Source of the DNA: a virus
Taxonomy: Duplodnaviria > Heunggongvirae > Uroviricota > Caudoviricetes
Direction: 5' to 3' (one strand)
IMG/VR virus record: IMGVR_UViG_2778261086_000003
Span: 1-13,716 of that record
Length of the DNA stretch: 13,716 nt
Translations under genes and position numbers: made by a program
In this document: one piece after another, positions 3,996-13,716 of the stretch
How the letters are laid out: each line of letters begins with the position of its first letter
How positions within the stretch are numbered: position 1 is the first letter of the stretch
The notes under the pieces: generated by a model
What the model was told of the DNA's origin: nothing
Seen by the model: the letters and a program-made list of their open reading frames with translations, nothing else
The model's database searches: none

Positions 3996-4080
3996 AGTCA
4001 GAGATAACAATCAACTAATACTGTTTTGTTGATTTTTGCTTGTAATTGGCGTTCTGGTCTGATTTTTGTGGAGTAAGTTG

Positions 4081-4458
4081 ATGCGTGATATTCAGATGGT
4101 TCTTGAGCGTTGGGGAGCGTGGGCGGCTAATAATCATGAAGATGTGACCTGGTCGTCCATTGCCGCCGGTTTTAAGGGATTAATTACTTCAAAAGTAAAA
4201 TCTCGCCCGCAATGTTGTGACGATGACGCGATGATTATTTGCGGGTGCATGGCCCGTCTGAAAAAGAACAACAGCGATTTGCATGATTTATTGGTGGACT
4301 ATTATGTCGGCGGCATGACTTTTATGGCGCTTGCACGTAAGCATGGGCGATCTGATTGTTGGGTTGGCAGGATGCTCCAGAAAGCTGAGGGCGTAGTGGA
4401 GGGTATGCTGATGGTGTTGGATCTCCGATTGGAGATGGATGCTGATTGTTCGAAATAA
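4081..4458 (+). CDS. quuD: late-gene antiterminator Q (QuuD-like, 125 aa)
   Basis: ATG at 4081 preceded by GGAG (4070-4073); the ORF-track start at 4066 is a TTG extension. [24 protein letters not shown]... resembles DLP12/phage-82-type Q. Followed by a terminator, as expected for the pR'/tR' arrangement. Confidence 0.8.
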
Positions 4459-4558
4459 TTAAAGGAAAAGTTGCTGTCTGATTGTCATTAGTCTAACATT
4501 TTAAATGTTGGAATCGCAACGTAGTTATTATCATATAACAGCTTGTTTCCTGATTTAG
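4459..4558 (+). promoter_or_regulatory. putative late promoter and Q-utilisation region
   Basis: Position only: in lambdoid phages pR' and qut lie between Q and tR'. Weak -35/-10 candidates (TTGCTG...TAACAT) but no confident match. Confidence 0.3.
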
Positions 4559-4585
4559 CCAGCCTCCCCAAAGGCTGGTTTTTTT
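4559..4585 (+). terminator. rho-independent terminator (tR'-like)
   Basis: Stem CCAGCCT (4559-4565), loop CCCCAA, stem AGGCTGG (4572-4578), then TTTTTTT (4579-4585). Plus-strand only; the reverse read has no U-tract. Confidence 0.65.
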
Positions 4586-4613
4586 CTAATAAGTATTATT
4601 TCGGGTAGGGATT

Positions 4614-5138
4614 TTATTGTTTAACCCATAATAATTCATTGACATTGAATCCCAACTTTTGAGCGGTTCGCACATAGTCTGCTTTTACTTTATCTGGAAT
4701 AGTTGGGGTCCTTGCCAGAATCCATAGGTATTCTCTGTTCGGACCACTGACAAGAGCATACTTATACTCATCATCCAGTTTGATTACATTATAGCCACCA
4801 TAGAAGGGGCCAAAAAACGAAACCTTCAATGCTGCAGTTTTAGTATCTCCAGTAAAGTATGCTTTACCTTCGCTCTCGCTCCATTTATTTTTCGTTGGAT
4901 CGTATCCACGGTTAAGTACACGAATCCCTCCGTCGTTCCGTTTTCCATAAGTAGCGCTGACCTGTTCCAGATCACGTTCGAACCGGTTCTCGAGGCGAGC
5001 TATTTCATACCATTTTCCGAGGTAGCGGTTGGCGTCAAAATTTGTAATCGGCTGCACACCTTTAGGTGGTGTCGGGGCCTTACATGCTATAAGAGTGAAA
5101 GAGAGTGCAATGCCAGTCAACACAGGCCATAACTTCAT
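4614..5138 (-). CDS. Blc-family bacterial lipocalin, outer-membrane lipoprotein (174 aa)
   Basis: Signal peptide with lipobox (LIAC), then lipocalin signatures (NFDANRYLGKWYEIARLENRFE...YLWILARTP). Homologous to but distinct from chromosomal Blc. Lower GC than flanking phage genes and antisense to late transcription. Confidence 0.85.
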   Translation of the reverse strand: MKLWPVLTGIALSFTLIACKAPTPPKGVQPITNFDANRYLGKWYEIARLENRFERDLEQVSATYGKRNDGGIRVLNRGYDPTKNKWSESEGKAYFTGDTKTAALKVSFFGPFYGGYNVIKLDDEYKYALVSGPNREYLWILARTPTIPDKVKADYVRTAQKLGFNVNELLWVKQ

Positions 5139-5330
5139 AATAAATCCTGTACTTTTGATAGTTGAGAGTAAGTATGAAAGATAGATGATTACGACCGATC
5201 ACTTAAAGAACTTTCATACTATATTAGGAATAGTCCATAACAGAAAAATTGTCAGTGATGACGCCAGAAAGGCAATTTATTCCGTGCACTACACAGTTTA
5301 TGTGTTAATGAATTAGTCAAGGGGGAGAAT

Positions 5331-6290: not shown

Positions 6291-6641
6291 TTGTATGCGA
6301 TATCATCCAAAAGGATGAGTTCCTGCATGCAGGATATTTACAATCGTAAAAACTACACTATGATACCCAGAGTGTCAGTTTGTATAAAAACTCTGTTTAC
6401 GCTGAAGAAACAATTGAGATGCAACTTAAAGTTGGTAAACATGCCAGTCAAAATATATAATATTATGATTCCACGCAGCTATATATAATATAACAGATTG
6501 GTTTAATAATTTGTCTTTGTGAGTTAAATACATAATTTTATACTTGTGATGCAATGAAATTTTCCTTATTGTTGAACTGGCGAATATTGATTTTCCACCT
6601 ATACTTACCTGGTGTAACCCCAATGATATCAGGTGGATAAT

Positions 6642-7373
6642 ATGCCATACATATGTTCTATCATTTTGGTGTTGAACTCGTTTGATGTCCGAATTGGTAA
6701 AGAAGATATTTTGTTTAAAAAAGGAAGTGCTGTTCTCATTGATTACAATTTAAAAGATTTTTTTTCATCAAATATAGATCATGTAATGATCGTAGATGTT
6801 GAAGAGAAAACAGTTAATGATTTCTTTAAAAGCAACACACTCTCACCTTTTTCTGTAAGAAGGTTTTATCCGGCATACTTGATGGTGGAATGTGAAGATT
6901 TTTCATTGTTAAAGAACTTGATTGCATGCTTGAATTGTGATGGCAGAACTGTGGATTTTGTTAGAAATCAAATATCACTTGCATGTCTTGCTATCTTATC
7001 TTCAGAGAAAATAGTGCAAAGTTTTTTATTTGGATGTCTTAATAGTTTAGGAAGTAAAGTTAAGGCTATTATTCACACGGATATATCTGCAGCATGGAGA
7101 CTTTGTGATATATCTTCAAGACTGTATCTGAGTGAAAGTCTGTTAAAAAGAAAATTAAAGCACGAAGGCTTATCATTTAGTAAGTTAATTCTTGAAGAGC
7201 GAATGGTGATGGCGGAAAGGTTATTAAGCTACAATTTATATTCTGTTGGAAAAGTTGCTGAGATATGCGGTTATGAAAACACGTCATATTTTGTAAGTGT
7301 TTTCAGAAGATATTTTGGTGTTCCTCCCCATCAATATTCATCAAGATTTTTTTTAGAAAAAGACATGATGTAA
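6642..7373 (+). CDS. AraC/XylS-family transcriptional regulator (243 aa)
   Basis: C-terminal AraC-type HTH region (LLKRKLKHEGLSFSKLILEERMVMAERLL...VGKVAEICGYENTSYFVSVFRRYFGVPPHQY). ATG at 6642 with AGGTGG 5 nt upstream; the ORF-track start at 6633 is a GTG extension. Very AT-rich gene and leader. Confidence 0.75.
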   Translation: MPYICSIILVLNSFDVRIGKEDILFKKGSAVLIDYNLKDFFSSNIDHVMIVDVEEKTVNDFFKSNTLSPFSVRRFYPAYLMVECEDFSLLKNLIACLNCDGRTVDFVRNQISLACLAILSSEKIVQSFLFGCLNSLGSKVKAIIHTDISAAWRLCDISSRLYLSESLLKRKLKHEGLSFSKLILEERMVMAERLLSYNLYSVGKVAEICGYENTSYFVSVFRRYFGVPPHQYSSRFFLEKDMM

Positions 7374-7434: not shown

Positions 7435-7466
7435 ACGCCAGAATAATCGCTGGCGTTTTTCTTTTT
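7435..7466 (+). terminator. rho-independent terminator downstream of the AraC gene
   Basis: Stem CGCCAG (7436-7441), loop AATAATCG, stem CTGGCG (7450-7455), then TTTTTCTTTTT. Confidence 0.55.
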
Positions 7467-7561: not shown

Positions 7562-7777
7562 ATGAAATCTATGGATAAGTTAACAACGGGCATTGCCTAC
7601 GGTACCTCCGCAGGCAGTGCTGGCTACTGGTTTTTACAGCTGCTCGATAAAGTCACGCCCTCACAGTGGGCAGCAATAGGTGTATTGGGTAGTCTGGTAT
7701 TTGGCCTGCTGACGTACCTGACAAACCTTTATTTCAAGATTAAAGAAGATAAGCGCAAGGCTGCGAGAGGTGAATAA
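7562..7777 (+). CDS. essD: class II holin (phage 21 S21-like pinholin, 71 aa)
   Basis: [26 protein letters not shown]...; two transmembrane segments; dual-start motif Met1-Lys-Ser-Met4. GGAGGTGAGG ribosome-binding site. Stop overlaps the endolysin ATG (TAATG). Symbol follows DLP12 naming. Confidence 0.85.
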
Positions 7778-8274
7778 TGCCTCCATCATTACGAAAAGCC
7801 GTTGCTGCGGCTATTGGTGGCGGGGCTATTGCTATAGCATCTGTGTTAATCACTGGCCCAAGTGGTAACGATGGTCTGGAAGGCGTCAGCTACATACCAT
7901 ATAAAGATATCGTTGGTGTATGGACTGTATGTTACGGGCATACCGGAAAAGACATTATGCTCGGTAAAACGTATACCGAAGCAGAATGCAAAGCCCTCCT
8001 GAATAAAGACCTTGCCACTGTCGCCAGACAAATTAACCCGTACATCAAAGTCGATATACCGGAAACAACGCGCGGCGCTCTTTACTCGTTCGTTTACAAC
8101 GTTGGTGCTGGAAATTTCAGAACATCGACGCTTCTTCGCAAAATAAACCAGGGCGATATCAAAGGCGCATGTGATCAGCTACGGCGCTGGACATACGCTG
8201 GCGGTAAGCAATGGAAAGGGCTGATGACTCGCCGTGAGATTGAGCGTGAAGTCTGTTTGTGGGGGCAACAATGA
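7777..8274 (+). CDS. rrrD: SAR endolysin (phage 21 R21-like lysozyme, 165 aa)
   Basis: N-terminal Gly/Ala-rich weakly hydrophobic SAR segment ([20 protein letters not shown]), then a T4-lysozyme-like catalytic core. Stop overlaps the next ATG (ATGA). Symbol follows DLP12 naming. Confidence 0.9.
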
Positions 8275-8503
8275 GTAGAGTAACCGCGATTATGGTTCGA
8301 AATGGGATGTTATCCGTGAACGTGTGCTCAAGCGTGACAAAGGACTGTGTCAGTTATGTCTGCGTGGTGGTGTGGTGCGTGAGGCGAAAACCGTTGACCA
8401 CATCATCCCTAAAGCACATGGCGGCACTGATGCCGACAGCAATCTGCAGAGCCTGTGCTGGCCGTGTCATAAGGCGAAGACGGCCCGTGAACGGCTGAAG
8501 TAA
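8271..8503 (+). pseudogene. Rz (spanin) start fused to the 3' fragment of an HNH endonuclease gene
   Basis: ATG at 8271 encodes MSRVTAI, identical to the first seven residues of lambda-type Rz, then diverges. A different frame (from ~8279, after an in-frame TAG at 8276-8278, to TAA 8501-8503) encodes SNRDYGSKWDVIRERVLKRDKGLCQLC...DHIIPKAHGGTDADSNLQSLCWPCHKAKTARERLK, an HNH C-terminus with no start codon. Confidence 0.6.
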
Positions 8504-8628: not shown

Positions 8629-9123
8629 ATGGCTGGAACGGCGGGGCGTTCCGGGCGTCGCCCCAAGCCAACGGCGCGCAAGGCGCTGGCCGGAAACCCC
8701 GGCAAGCGAGCCCTGAACAAAGATGAACCTGTTTTTACGCCCATCAAAGGTGTTGAGCCACCGGAGTGGTTCGCTGAAGAAGATCTCCCTCTCGCCACGA
8801 TCATGTGGCAACTGACAACCAAAGAACTCTGCGGTCAGGGCCTGCTGTGCGTGACTGACCTCGCGGTGCTTGAGCGGTGGTGCGTGGCCTATGAGTTCTG
8901 GCGACGTGCCGTGAAAAATATTGCCAGACAGGGCAACACCATCACCGGTGCAATGGGCGGCATGGTCAAAAATCCGGAGCTGACCGCCAAAAAAGAACAG
9001 GAGTCCGAGATGAGCAGCACGGGGGCAATGCTCGGACTCGACCCCAGCAGCCGTCAGCGTCTGATTGGCCTGGCGGGGCAGAAGAAAACCACTAACCCGT
9101 TTCTGAAAATCATCGAATCATGA
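8629..9123 (+). CDS. terminase small subunit (P27/HK97 gp1-like, 164 aa)
   Basis: ATG at 8629 with AGGAG 9 nt upstream; the ORF-track start at 8620 is a GTG extension. Basic N-terminus ([27 protein letters not shown]). Stop overlaps the large terminase ATG (ATGA). Confidence 0.8.
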
Positions 9124-9938
9124 GCCGGAAATCTTACCCCAACGTAAATGCTGCCAATCAGTATGCCCGGGATGTCGTGCGCGGAAAGATTGTGGCCTGC
9201 CAGTTTGTGATTCAGGCCTGCCAGCGCCATCTTGATGACCTGATGGAGGAAAAAAGTAAGTCGTTTCGTTACCGCTTCGACAAGGACCTGGCTGAACGGG
9301 CCGCGAAATTTATTCAGCTGTTGCCGCACACCAAGGGTGAGTGGGCATTTAAGAGGATGCCCATCACGCTGGAGCCGTGGCAGCTCTTTGTGATCTGCTG
9401 CGCGTTTGGCTGGGTCAATAAAGGCTCCCGGCTGCGCCGCTTCTGTGAGGTGTATACCGAAATCCCCCGTAAGAACGGCAAATCGGCAATCTCTGCCGGT
9501 GTCGCCCTGTATTGTTTTGCCTGTGATAACGAGTTTGGCGCGGAAGTGTATTCCGGTGCCACGACAGAGAAACAGGCGTGGGAAGTCTTTCGCCCGGCGC
9601 GACTGATGTGTAAACGCACACCCATGCTGACGGAAGCGTTCGGGATTGAGGTTAACGCCTCAAACATGAACCGTCCGGAGGATGGCGCGCGGTTTGAACC
9701 GCTGATCGGCAACCCCGGTGATGGTTCATCACCCCACTGTGCGGTGGTGGATGAATATCACGAGCACGCCACCGATGCGCTTTATACCACGATGCTTACC
9801 GGGATGGGGGCGCGACGTCAGCCACTGATGTGGGCCATCACCACCGCCGGGTACAACATTGAGGGGCCGTGCTACGACAAGCGGCGGGAAGTTATCGAGA
9901 TGCTCAACGGTTCGGTATCAAATCGGATGGCACGGTGA
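9120..9938 (+). pseudogene. terminase large subunit, 3'-truncated (N-terminal ATPase domain only, 272 codons)
   Basis: Walker A motif (EIPRKNGKS) and ATPase-domain sequence present. The reading frame stops after ...EMLNGSV, whereas intact large terminases are roughly twice this length. Downstream sequence switches to unrelated glycine-rich coding. Confidence 0.8.
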
Positions 9939-10600
9939 AAACGGCTCTCGAAAACCTTGGTTTGGGAGATGGCTCGGGGCGTTACAGCAAAACTGTCGTT
10001 TTTTCATCGTCGGGTTCATATACGTGGCCAGCTGACGTAAAACGAATTGACGTTATTCTGACTGCGGGGGGCGGCGGTGGCGGTGGATGTAACGCGGAGA
10101 ACGCAAATCAGACATTTTCAGGGGCTGGCGGAGGAGCCGGAGGTACTGTTTTTGCCACTATTTATGCGACAGACAACGATGCCGGGCCAGGGACCTATAC
10201 AGTGACAATTGGCAGCGGTGGTAGTGGTGCCAATGGGCCAGGGTCTGGAAATAATGGCGGTAATAGTTCGTTCATGACATTAACTGCGCTCGGCGGCCAG
10301 GGTGGGCAATGGGGCGGCGCTACAAATACCGCTGGCGGGCGCGGTGGCTCAGGCTCTGGCGGTTATAAAACTGAACAAGGCGGAGACGGTTCAGACGGAC
10401 AGGCGGGCCAGGCGCTATTAGTAGGCAATGGGGCATCGAGCTATTGGGGTGGCGGCGGCCGCGCTGGGCAACTGAGCGGTAATCCTGGAGTTTGCTCTGG
10501 CTCCGGCGGCGGGGGTGCATACGATAATAGCTATTCACACACGTCAGGACGTGGCGGGCACGGAGCTAATGGCGTGCTGGTAATTCGGGAGTTCATGTAA
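9869..10600 (+). CDS. glycine-rich tail-fibre C-terminal fragment (5' end missing; real start unknown)
   Basis: ORF of 243 codons overlapping the truncated terminase. Sequence ...[26 protein letters not shown]... followed by long GGxGG/GSG runs is characteristic of glycine-rich domains of phage tail fibres. Immediately followed by a tail fibre assembly gene. The first ~15 codons are probably terminase DNA read out of frame. Confidence 0.5.
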
Positions 10601-11005
10601 ATGAATGATATCTATGCAGTTGTTGATAATAACGTTGTTATTAATGTCATTATCTGGGACGGAATTTCTGAATGGAAACCAGAGGCTGGTAATTTAGTTC
10701 CGTTAAACGGCGATGCTGGCATCGGTTGGTCATATTCAGACGGAGTATTTACCGCGCCACCTCCCCCAGAACGCTCTCACAACGCGTTAGTTGCGGAGGC
10801 TGAGCTGCAGAAATCAGCACTACTGACCGTAGCAAATAACACAATAGCACCGCTGCAGGATGCCGTTGATTTGGAAATGGCGACAGACGATGAACAGGCG
10901 TTAATGCTGGCGTGGAAAAAATACAGGGTACTGCTGAACCGTGTTGATACCTCAGCGGCACCCGAAATAGAGTGGCCTACGCAACCGGGGGAGCGGGCCA
11001 GTTGA
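10601..11005 (+). CDS. tail fibre assembly protein (Tfa, 134 aa)
   Basis: C-terminus ...[48 protein letters not shown] matches the conserved Tfa chaperone C-terminal domain. Start is immediately after the upstream stop (TAAATG). Confidence 0.8.
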
Positions 11006-11293: not shown

Positions 11294-12415
11294 TTAAGAT
11301 ATTCTTTTAGCTATAGAATGACCTATATTTATAAACGGTTTTTCTATTACGTTATATATCAAGTAAGATAGGCTTATAGAAATTATGAGCGATGATATAT
11401 AAATGGCAAACGATCTATGTTCAGTGCTAATACCAATACTGGAACCGTAAAACTCAATAAACTGTATAACAGGAACATGAATCAGATAAAGTGAATATGA
11501 TATTCCACCAAGAGCAACAAGTGATTTATTGAATGAAATAACTTTATTATTTTCTAGAATAATAACACACAAAACAATCAGAAATGCAATATATGCAGAT
11601 CGCGTCAAACCATGTCCTTCAGACACCCCATTAAGCCAAAAAACAAACATCATTCCTAGAATGAAAACGCATAAACTATTTATAATAGAATTATTCATTC
11701 TTTTATGCCTAAGTAAAGGCATTGTCTCTGATATAATCATCCCTAAAATGAAATCATATACTATAGGATTGCCTATGAATCCTATATGAGAAAACACCCC
11801 TGTTTTTGCAATATTGAATGATTGGGCGTCAATTACTACCGAGTGGTTAAAGTAAAGAGAAATAATTGTACTTACAGCAACTAGAAAACATGATGTGATT
11901 AATACCCTGTATTTTATGCTTAATGACATGGATATTGCGAAAATAAAATAAAAATATATCTCGTACCCAAGTGACCATGAAACAATTAGCGTTCCCCACC
12001 CATAATATGGCGGTAGAGTTGAGACATCTAAAGGGATGAGAAGAAATGATTTTATAATATTATTTATAGAAAAAACACCACCCCATGATACGCCTGTGTA
12101 AATATTGTGGTAAAAAAGAAAAACATAAACGCTTAATACTATTGCGTAAACAGGATAAATTCTAAAAAATCTCTTTACAAGAAATGAGGCGGTATTTCTT
12201 AAAGATGTTTTTGTAAAGTTTTTAGTTGAGTATGATATTATAAATCCGCTTATTATAAAAAACAATTCAACTCCAAATATAGCATTCGCGGTTATCCTGT
12301 CCATGAAAGAACCAGGATCTACTTGCCCGAAAAGACCTCTATTATGACCAATAGCTACAGCAAGAGCTGCAATTCCACGAAGCGCTTCTATTCCGTATAA
12401 TTTATCTGTTTTCAT
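11294..12415 (-). CDS. acyltransferase-3 family integral membrane O-acyltransferase (Oac/OafA-like, ~373 aa)
   Basis: Multi-pass hydrophobic protein with the N-terminal acyltransferase-3 signature (LYGIEALRGIAALAVAIGH). Start placed at ATG 12415; the ORF-track start at 12418 is a TTG. Very AT-rich and adjacent to the integrase, as for O-antigen acetylase genes of Shigella phages. Confidence 0.85.
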   Translation of the reverse strand: MKTDKLYGIEALRGIAALAVAIGHNRGLFGQVDPGSFMDRITANAIFGVELFFIISGFIISYSTKNFTKTSLRNTASFLVKRFFRIYPVYAIVLSVYVFLFYHNIYTGVSWGGVFSINNIIKSFLLIPLDVSTLPPYYGWGTLIVSWSLGYEIYFYFIFAISMSLSIKYRVLITSCFLVAVSTIISLYFNHSVVIDAQSFNIAKTGVFSHIGFIGNPIVYDFILGMIISETMPLLRHKRMNNSIINSLCVFILGMMFVFWLNGVSEGHGLTRSAYIAFLIVLCVIILENNKVISFNKSLVALGGISYSLYLIHVPVIQFIEFYGSSIGISTEHRSFAIYISSLIISISLSYLIYNVIEKPFINIGHSIAKRIS

Positions 12416-12558
12416 CAAGTAATATAGTTAGTAGTTGATAAAATTGTTGCTGGAGTCTACCACCAAGAGCTTGGATGATCGACCAGTTAGCATCTCAAGC
12501 TGTATGCGTGAGACAAAAACGAGACACACAAAGCTTTGCAAGTCTTTGCGCTGTTTAC

Positions 12559-13716
12559 CTATGATACCTTCTCCTCAATCCAATCCGCCCACCACTGCAT
12601 CATTTCTCTGCGCTTATCGAGATACTGAGCATGGTTGTAAATCCCGCGCACAGATCCGCCGTTGGCATGTGCCAGTTGCACTTCAATAGCATCAGCAGGC
12701 CATTCGTGCTCGTTCATAATCGTGCTGAATTCATGCCTGAATCCGTGACCGCTTTCCAGACCTTCATAGCCGATTTGTTTGATCACAAGCAGTACAGCGT
12801 TCTCGCAAATTGGCTTCTTCTTATCGTTGCGCCCGGCAAAAACAAACTCTGATACTGGTTTGGTGATTGAACTTAGCGTAGTGAGAAGTTCAACTACCTG
12901 GTCTGACATAGGAACCACATGAATCTTGCGTCCCTTCATCACACTGGCCTCGATGGTGATAATCCTGTTTTCAAAATCGACGTTCTTCCATTGCATGGAA
13001 CGAAGCTCTTTTGTTCTTAGTGCTGTGTAGCGTAAAACTTTGGTCGCAATGAGAGATACGATACTTCCTGAAAATGTTGCAAGTGCTTTGTTGAATGCCG
13101 GGATCTGGTCGGCAGGTAAAAACGGGAAGTTCTTCTTGCGGTATCCTTTCATGGCGTCTGCAAGGTCAGGTGCCGGGTTATATTTAGCCCTTCCGGTGAC
13201 AATAGCGTAACGAAAAACCTCGCCGCATCTTCTGCGGGCTTTGTTGGCTCGCTCCATTGCACCGCGATCTTCAAATCTTCGGATTACTTCCAGCAGTTGC
13301 ATCGGCTCAATATCCTGAATTTCAAGACCGCCGATGATGGGTAAAATGTCGTCATCAAACATTTTGGCAAGTTCAGTTGCATAGCCTACTGACCAGACTT
13401 GCTTCTTGTGCTCGTACCATTCCTTGTAAATCGCACTAAATGAATTGTTGTTAGACGAAGCCTTTTTCGCCTTTACCGGATCGATGCCAACCGAGATGTC
13501 TTTCCTCGCAGTCCATGCCTTATCCCTTGCTTCCTGCAAAGTCATAAGCGGATATTTTCCGACAGTCAGGATTTTCTCCTTACCGTCAATCTTGTAGCGA
13601 AGCTGCCATACCTTTTTCCCTGATACAGGGACATAAAGGTACAGGCCATTACCATCGAGTAGGCGGTATGGTTTTTCTTTCGGCTTTGCTGCTTCAATCT
13701 GCTTAACGGTGAGCAT
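12559..13716 (-). CDS. tyrosine-type site-specific integrase (P4/CPS-53 IntS-like, 385 aa)
   Basis: Full ORF whose ATG is the last three bases of the window. C-terminal catalytic signature (HGFRHEF ... LAHANGGSVRGIYNHAQY). N-terminus MLTVKQIEAAKPKEKPYRLLDGNGLYLYVPV is typical of tRNA-associated P4-family integrases. Attachment site would lie beyond the window. Confidence 0.9.
   Translation of the reverse strand: MLTVKQIEAAKPKEKPYRLLDGNGLYLYVPVSGKKVWQLRYKIDGKEKILTVGKYPLMTLQEARDKAWTARKDISVGIDPVKAKKASSNNNSFSAIYKEWYEHKKQVWSVGYATELAKMFDDDILPIIGGLEIQDIEPMQLLEVIRRFEDRGAMERANKARRRCGEVFRYAIVTGRAKYNPAPDLADAMKGYRKKNFPFLPADQIPAFNKALATFSGSIVSLIATKVLRYTALRTKELRSMQWKNVDFENRIITIEASVMKGRKIHVVPMSDQVVELLTTLSSITKPVSEFVFAGRNDKKKPICENAVLLVIKQIGYEGLESGHGFRHEFSTIMNEHEWPADAIEVQLAHANGGSVRGIYNHAQYLDKRREMMQWWADWIEEKVS

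Follow-up and report, generated by a model that had tools for sequence, protein, structure and literature searches.

The stretch of viral DNA analysed here (IMG/VR record IMGVR_UViG_2778261086_000003; all of its 13,716 nucleotides are called the window below) carries, between the Q antiterminator gene and the lysis genes of a prophage, a gene for a lipocalin lipoprotein that is read against the late operon. Sequence comparison places this lipocalin not in the lineage of the chromosomal blc gene of E. coli, but in a second Enterobacterales lineage that is linked to MerR-type regulators. The simplest reading of its surroundings is that it was captured as one divergent block together with the gene of RudS, a tRNA 4-thiouridine desulfidase, and that the regulator (with a transthyretin-like gene) was lost. 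The new part of the present work is this lineage, and the apparent joint capture of lipocalin and RudS out of a MerR-type stress locus. The lipocalin as a cargo gene is an already published moron and as such an ordinary finding: of 19 lambda-type phages surveyed earlier, more than half were given a 'blc' moron (Mathieu et al. 2020, PMC6969025). Both the pairing with RudS and the published-moron status had been missed in the initial annotation of the window.

The lipocalin and its chromosomal relatives

The gene is a single intact open reading frame (ORF; Table 1) of 174 amino acids plus a stop codon, which begins with ATG and has a GC content of 43.6% in AT-rich surroundings. Its product matched the family PF08212 Lipocalin_2 (E 1.1e-43, 149.2 bits against a cut-off of 24, profile positions 2-146 of 146) and the NCBIfam model PRK10477/NF007786 'outer membrane lipoprotein Blc' (314.5 bits against a cut-off of 267, positions 1-174 of 176), and the solved E. 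coli Blc chains 3mbt, 1qwd and 2aco were matched without gaps at E values of 1e-67 to 1e-68. By these matches the protein is a member of the bacterial lipocalin / Blc family; its PHROGs family is phrog_2809, 'unknown function'. The G-x-W of the first structurally conserved region (SCR1; here G41-K-W43) and the arginine of SCR3 (R143), which reportedly define the lipocalin motifs, are present and were invariant in an alignment of 11 sequences, as were A36, V74 and L141, which we take to be cavity-facing positions. AlphaFold2 run with the 11-sequence alignment reached a predicted local distance difference test score (pLDDT) of only 61.4, with a run of beta-strands over residues 59-142 and a helix at 149-161, a pattern that agrees with the eight-stranded antiparallel barrel and C-terminal helix of the family but is too uncertain for a comparison of folds; a Blc-type barrel fold is predicted from the identity of 63% between the mature part and the solved Blc structures. 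The lipobox was judged by a PROSITE-PS51257-style rule, which was satisfied by K2 in the n-region, an uncharged h-region and L16-I17-A18-C19. The N-terminus reads MKLWPVLTGIALSFTLIAC-KAPTPPKG, and the +2 residue is Lys and not Asp, leaving the protein without an inner-membrane retention signal. Thus the coordinates, strand, lipocalin family and lipobox given in the initial annotation were all borne out.

With the chromosomal Blc of E. coli (ampC-blc-sugE; 1QWD, 2ACO, 3MBT) the phage lipocalin shares its family, its length, a gap-free alignment over positions 1-174 and Cys19, as well as G41-x-W43, R143, A36, V74 and L141. The two differ, however, in sequence (103 of 174 positions identical, or 59%, and 63% over the mature part), in their genomic neighbours, ampC and sugE being absent next to the phage gene, and in the clade to which they belong. 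The earlier view of the gene as a paralogue, distinct from the chromosomal blc, therefore holds, and an orthologue or copy of E. coli blc is ruled out by the 59% identity, the neighbouring Q and RudS genes and the different clade. It had also been considered from the start that the gene might be an exact copy of blc brought in by misassembly. Such a misassembled or duplicated blc, for which the shared family name alone could be cited, is ruled out by the same degree of identity and by the Q-lipocalin-RudS junctions, which recur both in the genomes of isolated phages and in 1,029 complete genomes, and we regard its probability as practically nil.

A homologue search over 5.8 billion proteins returned many chromosomal Enterobacterales homologues of the phage lipocalin at 70-82% identity. 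When one genome per species was scanned and marker genes were sought by tblastn on the fetched loci, the Enterobacterales lipocalins fell into two lineages that are cleanly separated by their gene neighbours. Lineage A is the canonical blc, whose 22 copies are all flanked by sugE and in 10 cases also by ampC. Its genera include Escherichia, Salmonella, Citrobacter, Enterobacter, Cedecea, Kosakonia and Hafnia, and it is 54-62% identical to the phage lipocalin (57-62% without Hafnia and Mangrovibacter). Lineage B (Leclercia, Enterobacter, Buttiauxella, Cedecea, Scandinavium and a metagenome contig) is 77-82% identical to the phage lipocalin and does not lie beside ampC or sugE; its lipocalin gene is divergent from that of a regulator with MerR-HTH, MlrA_helical and MlrA_C domains. 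In Leclercia tamurae, Enterobacter intestinihominis, E. mori and the metagenome contig the regulator is followed in its operon by the transthyretin-like gene and RudS, and in E. sichuanensis the operon has RudS without the transthyretin-like gene. The operon of Cedecea lapagei, Scandinavium and Buttiauxella brennerae holds genes for a SnoaL protein, a short-chain dehydrogenase/reductase (SDR), an FAD amine-oxidase, a DUF1365 protein and a cyclopropane fatty acid (CFA)-synthase-like protein; the B. brennerae locus has RudS too, about 1.9 kb past the CFA-synthase-like gene and on the same strand. A lipocalin adjoins oxidase-DUF1365-CFA synthase genes in Chromatiaceae, and one adjoins RudS in a Nitrospirota genome.

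In a neighbour-joining tree (BLOSUM62 distances, 100 bootstraps) the coliphage alleles were monophyletic in 100 of 100 bootstraps, and together with eight MerR-linked copies they formed one clade, apart from lineage A, in 80 of 100. Tree and identities alike assign the phage lipocalin to the MerR-linked lineage B and not to the lineage of E. coli blc; the E. coli species-representative genome carries a lineage A lipocalin only. With the MerR/MlrA-linked lipocalins the phage copy has in common a KxPTPPKGVQP mature N-terminus, divergence from a RudS-containing operon and a colinear promoter-proximal region. It differs from them in that the regulator (and the transthyretin-like gene), kept in the chromosomal loci, has been lost, the palindromic box is degenerate, the GC content of third codon positions (GC3) is down to 0.40, and the gene lies in a phage late region. 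Another Blc-like lipoprotein, 51% identical and of a different lineage, is encoded by Morganella phage IME1369_01 (positions 4001-4516), where the gene sits past the lysis genes on the sense strand. This is an independent acquisition, and lipocalins have thus been captured near lysis modules at least twice.

Probable co-capture with RudS and the divergent control region

The 'YbgA family' gene next to the lipocalin is RudS, with a full TudS(DUF523)+DUF1722 fusion, and its product shares 93.1% identity with gp66 of phage 1H12 (RudS_vir), which was shown to remove 4-thiouridine (s4U) from tRNA (PMC11417400). In the same study RudS genes were described in light-responsive MerR/LitR operons, and E. 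coli was found to be without RudS (PMC11417400). The RudS of the window is 70-73% identical to the RudS of the lineage-B chromosomal lipocalin loci, and in six loci (L005, L010-L013 and L016) the polarity is that of the window, where the lipocalin on the minus strand is separated by 192 bp from RudS on the plus strand. Lipocalin and RudS are carried by the same 12 phage records, and in the 80 best IMG/VR loci, all of them E. coli-type copies at least 97% identical (91 weaker viral matches lie outside this set), RudS is adjacent wherever contig sequence extends. No MerR-type gene was found in the window or in these 80 best loci. The shared lineage-B identity of RudS, the colinear upstream region and the constant co-occurrence are the reasons why capture as a single block is the simplest reading. 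The word lipocalin is absent from the RudS paper (PMC11417400), and neither the lineage-B origin nor the co-capture with RudS was found described in the papers that were read.

This ancestry also bears on orientation. The initial annotation had placed the lipocalin antisense to late transcription, which is confirmed by the plus-strand Q, holin and lysozyme genes, and had read this as a position for expression in the lysogen. Lipocalin and RudS were already divergent in the chromosomal source, so one of them had to come to lie antisense, and the direction of the lipocalin gene does not have to reflect adaptation to expression in the lysogen; the lineage and the RudS pairing account for it without invoking adaptation. 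RudS lies in sense with the late operon and would be boosted after induction.

A different use of the orientation would put the transcription unit above the protein. By analogy with lambda paQ, the leftward transcript would converge on pR'/tR' and may enter Q in antisense, damping leaky late transcription and stabilising lysogeny. The terminator scan fits this, as the sole hairpin beyond the lipocalin stop codon on the minus strand is the tR'-like one, which has its T-run on the plus strand only, and no canonical intrinsic terminator on the minus strand was found between that stop codon and Q. Nevertheless, a role of the RNA alone leaves the purifying selection on amino acids and lipobox unexplained, ancestry already explains the orientation, and other phages fill the slot with sense-strand cargo, which makes such a role very improbable.

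Over about 100 bp 5' of its ATG the phage lipocalin gene is preceded by sequence colinear with that between MerR and lipocalin genes in the chromosomes. In the chromosomes (loci L005-L016) the box GAATAxTCTCAATATACTACGAATATTC stands about 60-100 bp 5' of the lipocalin ATG, beside the start of the MerR/MlrA-type gene, and in Buttiauxella it takes the form of two GAATATTC palindromes. The colinear stretch of the phage holds a degenerate copy of this palindromic box (GAATATTC...GAATATTC), and the phage -10-like element stands where the chromosomes have TGCACTACACTTAA. The conserved chromosomal TGCACTACACTTAA fits the sigma-S -10 consensus CTAYRCTTAA, and box and TGCACTACACTTAA are probably the operator and promoter of the divergon; a sigma-S-like nature of the chromosomal CTACACTTAA box and of its phage counterpart CATACTTAC is something that we infer only. 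Between the window and phage Lambda_ev087 the lipocalin-proximal 110 bp diverge by 5.5%, against a synonymous divergence (dS) of 0.19 in the ORF, or about 3.5-fold less, which suggests a constrained control region. Expression of the lipocalin in the lysogen appears plausible.

Selection on the lipocalin and its possible role

The phage lipocalin alleles are under purifying selection. The ratio of non-synonymous to synonymous substitution rates (dN/dS) among them is 0.08-0.24, and the window copy differs from that of Lambda_ev087 by 20 synonymous and 6 non-synonymous changes. All 80 of the best IMG/VR copies have an intact ORF of 174 codons and an unchanged lipobox, and the N-terminus with the signal peptide is the same in 79 of the 80. 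In comparison with lineage B the synonymous sites are saturated and GC3 is down, at 0.40 instead of 0.59-0.76, with a protein that is still about 80% identical; because of this saturation and the fall in GC3 the capture must be old and the residence under constraint long. These data weigh on the proposal that the lipocalin is a hitch-hiker without a selected function, kept through linkage to RudS or the AraC-type gene that follows it, or by a slot between Q and the lysis genes that tolerates cargo. Block capture with RudS, loss of the regulator, the failure to find a clear promoter, the circulation of truncated and substituted alleles and the possession by E. coli of its own Blc would all agree with a hitch-hiker. 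The low dN/dS, the intact copies with their unchanged lipobox, an upstream region more conserved than synonymous sites, and the long constrained residence would not, and we hold the proposal to be unlikely.

By analogy, the phage lipocalin very probably works like E. coli Blc, that is, as a periplasm-facing lipid-binding lipoprotein of the outer membrane. E. coli Blc is reportedly an rpoS-dependent outer-membrane lipoprotein that binds lysophospholipids and fatty acids. We consider it fairly probable that the captured lineage-B lipocalin is lysogenic-conversion cargo, a lipidated, periplasm-facing outer-membrane protein that binds lipids for envelope upkeep. The phage would have taken lipocalin and RudS as one divergent block from a MerR/MlrA-type locus, the regulator being lost; source loci of this type (with RudS and/or the CFA-synthase-like/DUF1365/FAD-oxidase cluster) are light- or oxidative-stress-induced in other bacteria. 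In the lysogen the gene would be transcribed leftward from its own retained promoter, probably in a stationary-phase, sigma-S-like manner as for blc. Export would be by the type II signal peptide, and after lipidation of Cys19 the Lol system would deliver the product to the outer membrane, where it would face the periplasm. There it might bind amphipathic periplasmic lipids, such as lysophospholipids and free or damaged/modified fatty acids, and so contribute to outer-membrane lipid homeostasis under stress, a function that E. coli may lack natively. In the lytic cycle, transcription that starts at pR' and is modified by Q would read through the lipocalin gene in antisense and silence it, with RudS and the AraC-type regulator expressed in sense. 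The identity of the lipocalin, its lipobox, its lineage, its linkage with RudS and the purifying selection are results of the present analysis, and localisation, ligand, promoter, timing of expression and benefit are predictions. No experimental study of the function of the phage lipocalin was found in a literature search by topic and by six RefSeq protein accessions.

That the phage supplies functions which its host is without is suggested by the absence of RudS from E. coli and by the representative genome with lineage A only. The chromosomal companions of the lipocalin, CFA-synthase/oxidase clusters and RudS, point to the handling of damaged or modified lipids under photo-oxidative or oxidative stress. 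A comparable case is known in Stenotrophomonas maltophilia, in which the lipocalin Smlt2367, a member of the sigmaEc-ChrR regulon, was induced 165-fold along with two CFA synthases (PMC11832516). In that oxidative-stress regulon the lipocalin is co-transcribed with CFA-synthase-like and FAD-oxidoreductase genes (PMC11832516), the same gene company as that of the Cedecea, Scandinavium and Buttiauxella relatives. The Smlt2367 regulator is an extracytoplasmic function (ECF) sigma/anti-sigma pair, whereas that of lineage B is MerR-type, and the likeness drawn here is one of gene company.

It is possible, if doubtful, that lipocalin and RudS form a light/photo-oxidative stress kit which lambdoid phages brought, without its regulator, from other Enterobacterales into E. 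coli, a host natively lacking both, and whose halves are used at different times. The antisense lipocalin would act in the lysogen on damaged or modified envelope lipids, and RudS, boosted by Q read-through after UV induction, would strip tRNA of photo-crosslinkable s4U so that late phage proteins are still translated. Should this be true, the phage copy would be a good starting point for finding which ligand Blc-type lipocalins bind physiologically; the physiological role of these proteins in bacteria is generally still vague. With the stress-locus lineage and the RudS pairing in view, the places to look are envelope phenotypes under UVA/blue light, under oxidative stress and in stationary phase, and the identity of the lipid ligand.

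Several observations weigh against a role in envelope upkeep. The mapping of a promoter in the control region had been suggested; a consensus scan of 5139-5330 found no sigma-70 consensus promoter on the minus strand, where there is only the conserved -10-like element, and the phage CATACT is weaker than the chromosomal CTACACTTAA. Without its regulator the phage lipocalin may be regulated quite differently or, with its GC content and AT-rich surroundings, silenced, and that light or oxidative stress controls the MerR/MlrA-type regulator in Enterobacterales was itself inferred by the RudS authors. To our knowledge blc mutants of E. coli have no strong phenotype, and the benefit of the lipocalin may for that reason be small. 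The allele of B strains (WP_000780584.1; Qin-like prophages of BL21-RIPL and WP8) carries R52W, G65E and P145Q, three positions at which the rest of the lineage-B sequences do not vary, and a C-terminally truncated form of 158 amino acids accounts for 668 database sequences. As such substituted and truncated alleles exist, the lipocalin is not indispensable, and some copies may be decaying.

Superinfection exclusion and serum resistance were also proposed, the initial annotation having likened the lipocalin to Bor, Cor and Llp. An outer-membrane lipoprotein could mask or inactivate a receptor, as Cor and Llp do with FhuA, or block complement, as Bor/Iss does. Like the phage lipocalin, Bor/Iss, Cor and Llp are small lipoproteins of temperate phages, and bor too is antisense to late transcription and near the lysis genes; bor/iss occurs in the same phages, and prophage cargo is enriched in membrane proteins (PMC6969025). 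Unlike it, they measure about 60-100 amino acids, are not lipocalins and have no relation to it in sequence or fold, and Cor and Llp are tied to FhuA-using phages. None of the PADLOC defence models matched at E <= 0.01 (0 families), PHROGs gives no function, and the nearest relatives belong to stress/lipid loci of chromosomes and not to phages. Moreover, the carrier phages already have separate sie and bor genes. The cassette is tied to the Q-S region, independently of the tail/receptor-binding module, and its backbones are diverse (a lambda-type siphovirus tail, sheath/tube remnants, Qin-like prophages and DLP12-like remnants); since it spans phages with quite different tail modules, blocking of the phage's own receptor fits poorly. 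The analogy is thus left unsupported, and we regard exclusion or serum resistance as improbable.

Prophage context and distribution

The features of the window are collected in Table 1. The lipocalin is cargo of the slot between Q and the lysis genes (Q-S slot). Plus-strand ybcO, rusA and Q precede it; the Q protein, a distant relative of Q21, also matched the Q protein of PDB entries 6p18/6jnx (E 1.8e-7). The hairpin and T-run 3' of Q are read as tR', and a candidate pR' lies upstream of it. Together (4459-4587) they would yield a transcript of about 80 nt 3' of Q, in a position comparable to that of the pR' short RNAs of other lambdoid phages. An Rfam scan of the whole window gave sub-threshold matches only, among them the tR' hairpin (28.6 bits against 50) and an IS009 match in the tail-fibre assembly gene that is probably not meaningful (45 bits against 117). 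No tRNA genes were found in the window.

Table 1. Coordinates of the lipocalin, its control region and other features of the window
Feature	Positions	Strand	Basis or remark
Q antiterminator gene, sets late-operon polarity	4066..4458	+	Phage_antitermQ, E 1e-50
Candidate pR', TTGCTG-17-TAACAT	4471-4499	+	predicted from sequence
tR'-like intrinsic terminator 3' of Q	4557..4587	+	terminator scan; hairpin 4557-4580, 9-bp stem, T-run on + only
Lipocalin lipoprotein gene, Blc-type, MerR-linked lineage	4614..5138	-	ORF list, Pfam/NCBIfam, identities, dN/dS
Type II signal peptide, residues 1-19	5082..5138	-	rule-based check; lipobox L-I-A-C at 5082-5093
Divergent 192-bp control region, lipocalin/RudS	5139..5330		colinearity, promoter scan; promoter function predicted
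Shine-Dalgarno ACAGGA	5145-5150	-	within 5139..5330
Candidate RudS-side promoter, TTGAGA-16-GATGAT	5162-5189	+	within 5139..5330
-10-like CATACT	5171-5176	-	within 5139..5330
Degenerate remnant of chromosomal palindromic box	5208-5235		within 5139..5330
RudS-type tRNA 4-thiouridine desulfidase gene (TudS/DUF523 + DUF1722), 319 aa	5331..6290	+	Pfam 2-thiour_desulf + DUF1722
AraC/YdeO/Psr-type (GadX-like) regulator gene, third cargo gene of slot	6633..7373	+	31.7% GC
Terminator after AraC-type gene	7435-7456	+	
P21-type holin and lysozyme genes	7562-8274	+	
Truncated HNH gene	8324-8503		
Large terminase gene, ATPase domain only	9120-9938		
Glycine-rich tail-fibre-like Gly_rich_2 ORF	9869-10600		
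Rfam IS009 match, sub-threshold	10768-10956	+	in tail-fibre assembly gene
Acyl_transf_3 membrane acyltransferase gene	11294-12418	-	AT-rich
IntS-type (CPS-53-like) integrase gene	12559-13716	-	ORF begins at the last base of the window, 13716

The third cargo gene of the slot encodes an AraC-type regulator that is 48% identical to PsrA (ECs1087, Sakai Sp4), a prophage regulator of type III secretion and acid resistance. It was found in 73 of the 80 best viral lipocalin loci and is of separate origin from lipocalin and RudS. A lipocalin was looked for beside PsrA in Sp4 of O157 Sakai and was not there, the region from Q to the lysis genes being filled instead by a CAAX protease, psrA and tRNAs. 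The lipocalin is thus a dispensable insert between conserved modules, in a slot with varying cargo, as is expected of a moron.

Among 5,426 complete E. coli genomes, 1,149 matched a 1-kb probe made up of the 3' end of Q, the lipocalin and the 5' end of RudS; in 1,029 of them, the genomes in which the junctions recur, the match covered 80% of the probe or more. The lipocalin ORF alone was found in 1,135 genomes, about 8% of the genome copies being partial. With a presence in about one fifth of the complete genomes, including those of B strains such as BL21, it is among the commonest cargo of lambdoid prophages in E. coli. The gene is also present, annotated 'Lipocalin Blc', in 12 sequenced coliphages. 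The module of Q, lipocalin (minus strand), RudS, AraC and holin occurs in lambda-like inducible phages such as Lambda_ev087, which has a lambda-type siphovirus tail, sitABCD and bor, in a prophage of NZ_AP027877.1 with sheath/tube remnants, and in Qin-like prophages including that of BL21; the cassette is found in DLP12-like remnants as well. The 'blc' moron of Lambda_ev087 and 1H12 is the same gene (96.6% amino-acid identity to the window copy), and the order Q / blc / ybgA-like / AraC-like / S R Rz is shared with the window. The window copy lies in a degraded prophage remnant and not in an inducible phage; otherwise nothing substantial differs. A 2.1-kb contig (JARKOR010000135.1) of a 'Candidatus Nanosynbacter' metagenome-assembled genome holds a 99%-identical lipocalin and a Q gene, and is almost certainly a fragment of an E. 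coli prophage that was mis-binned with Saccharibacteria.

The degradation is seen past the lysozyme gene, which is followed directly by the truncated HNH gene without Rz/Rz1. The large terminase is reduced to its ATPase domain and abuts the glycine-rich tail-fibre-like ORF, and portal, head and tail genes are absent. The window is colinear in no complete E. coli genome, the best being NZ_AP027877.1 with 79% in 3 pieces. The minus-strand membrane acyltransferase gene near the end of the window may be another cargo, possibly for O-antigen or surface modification, and is adjoined by the integrase gene.

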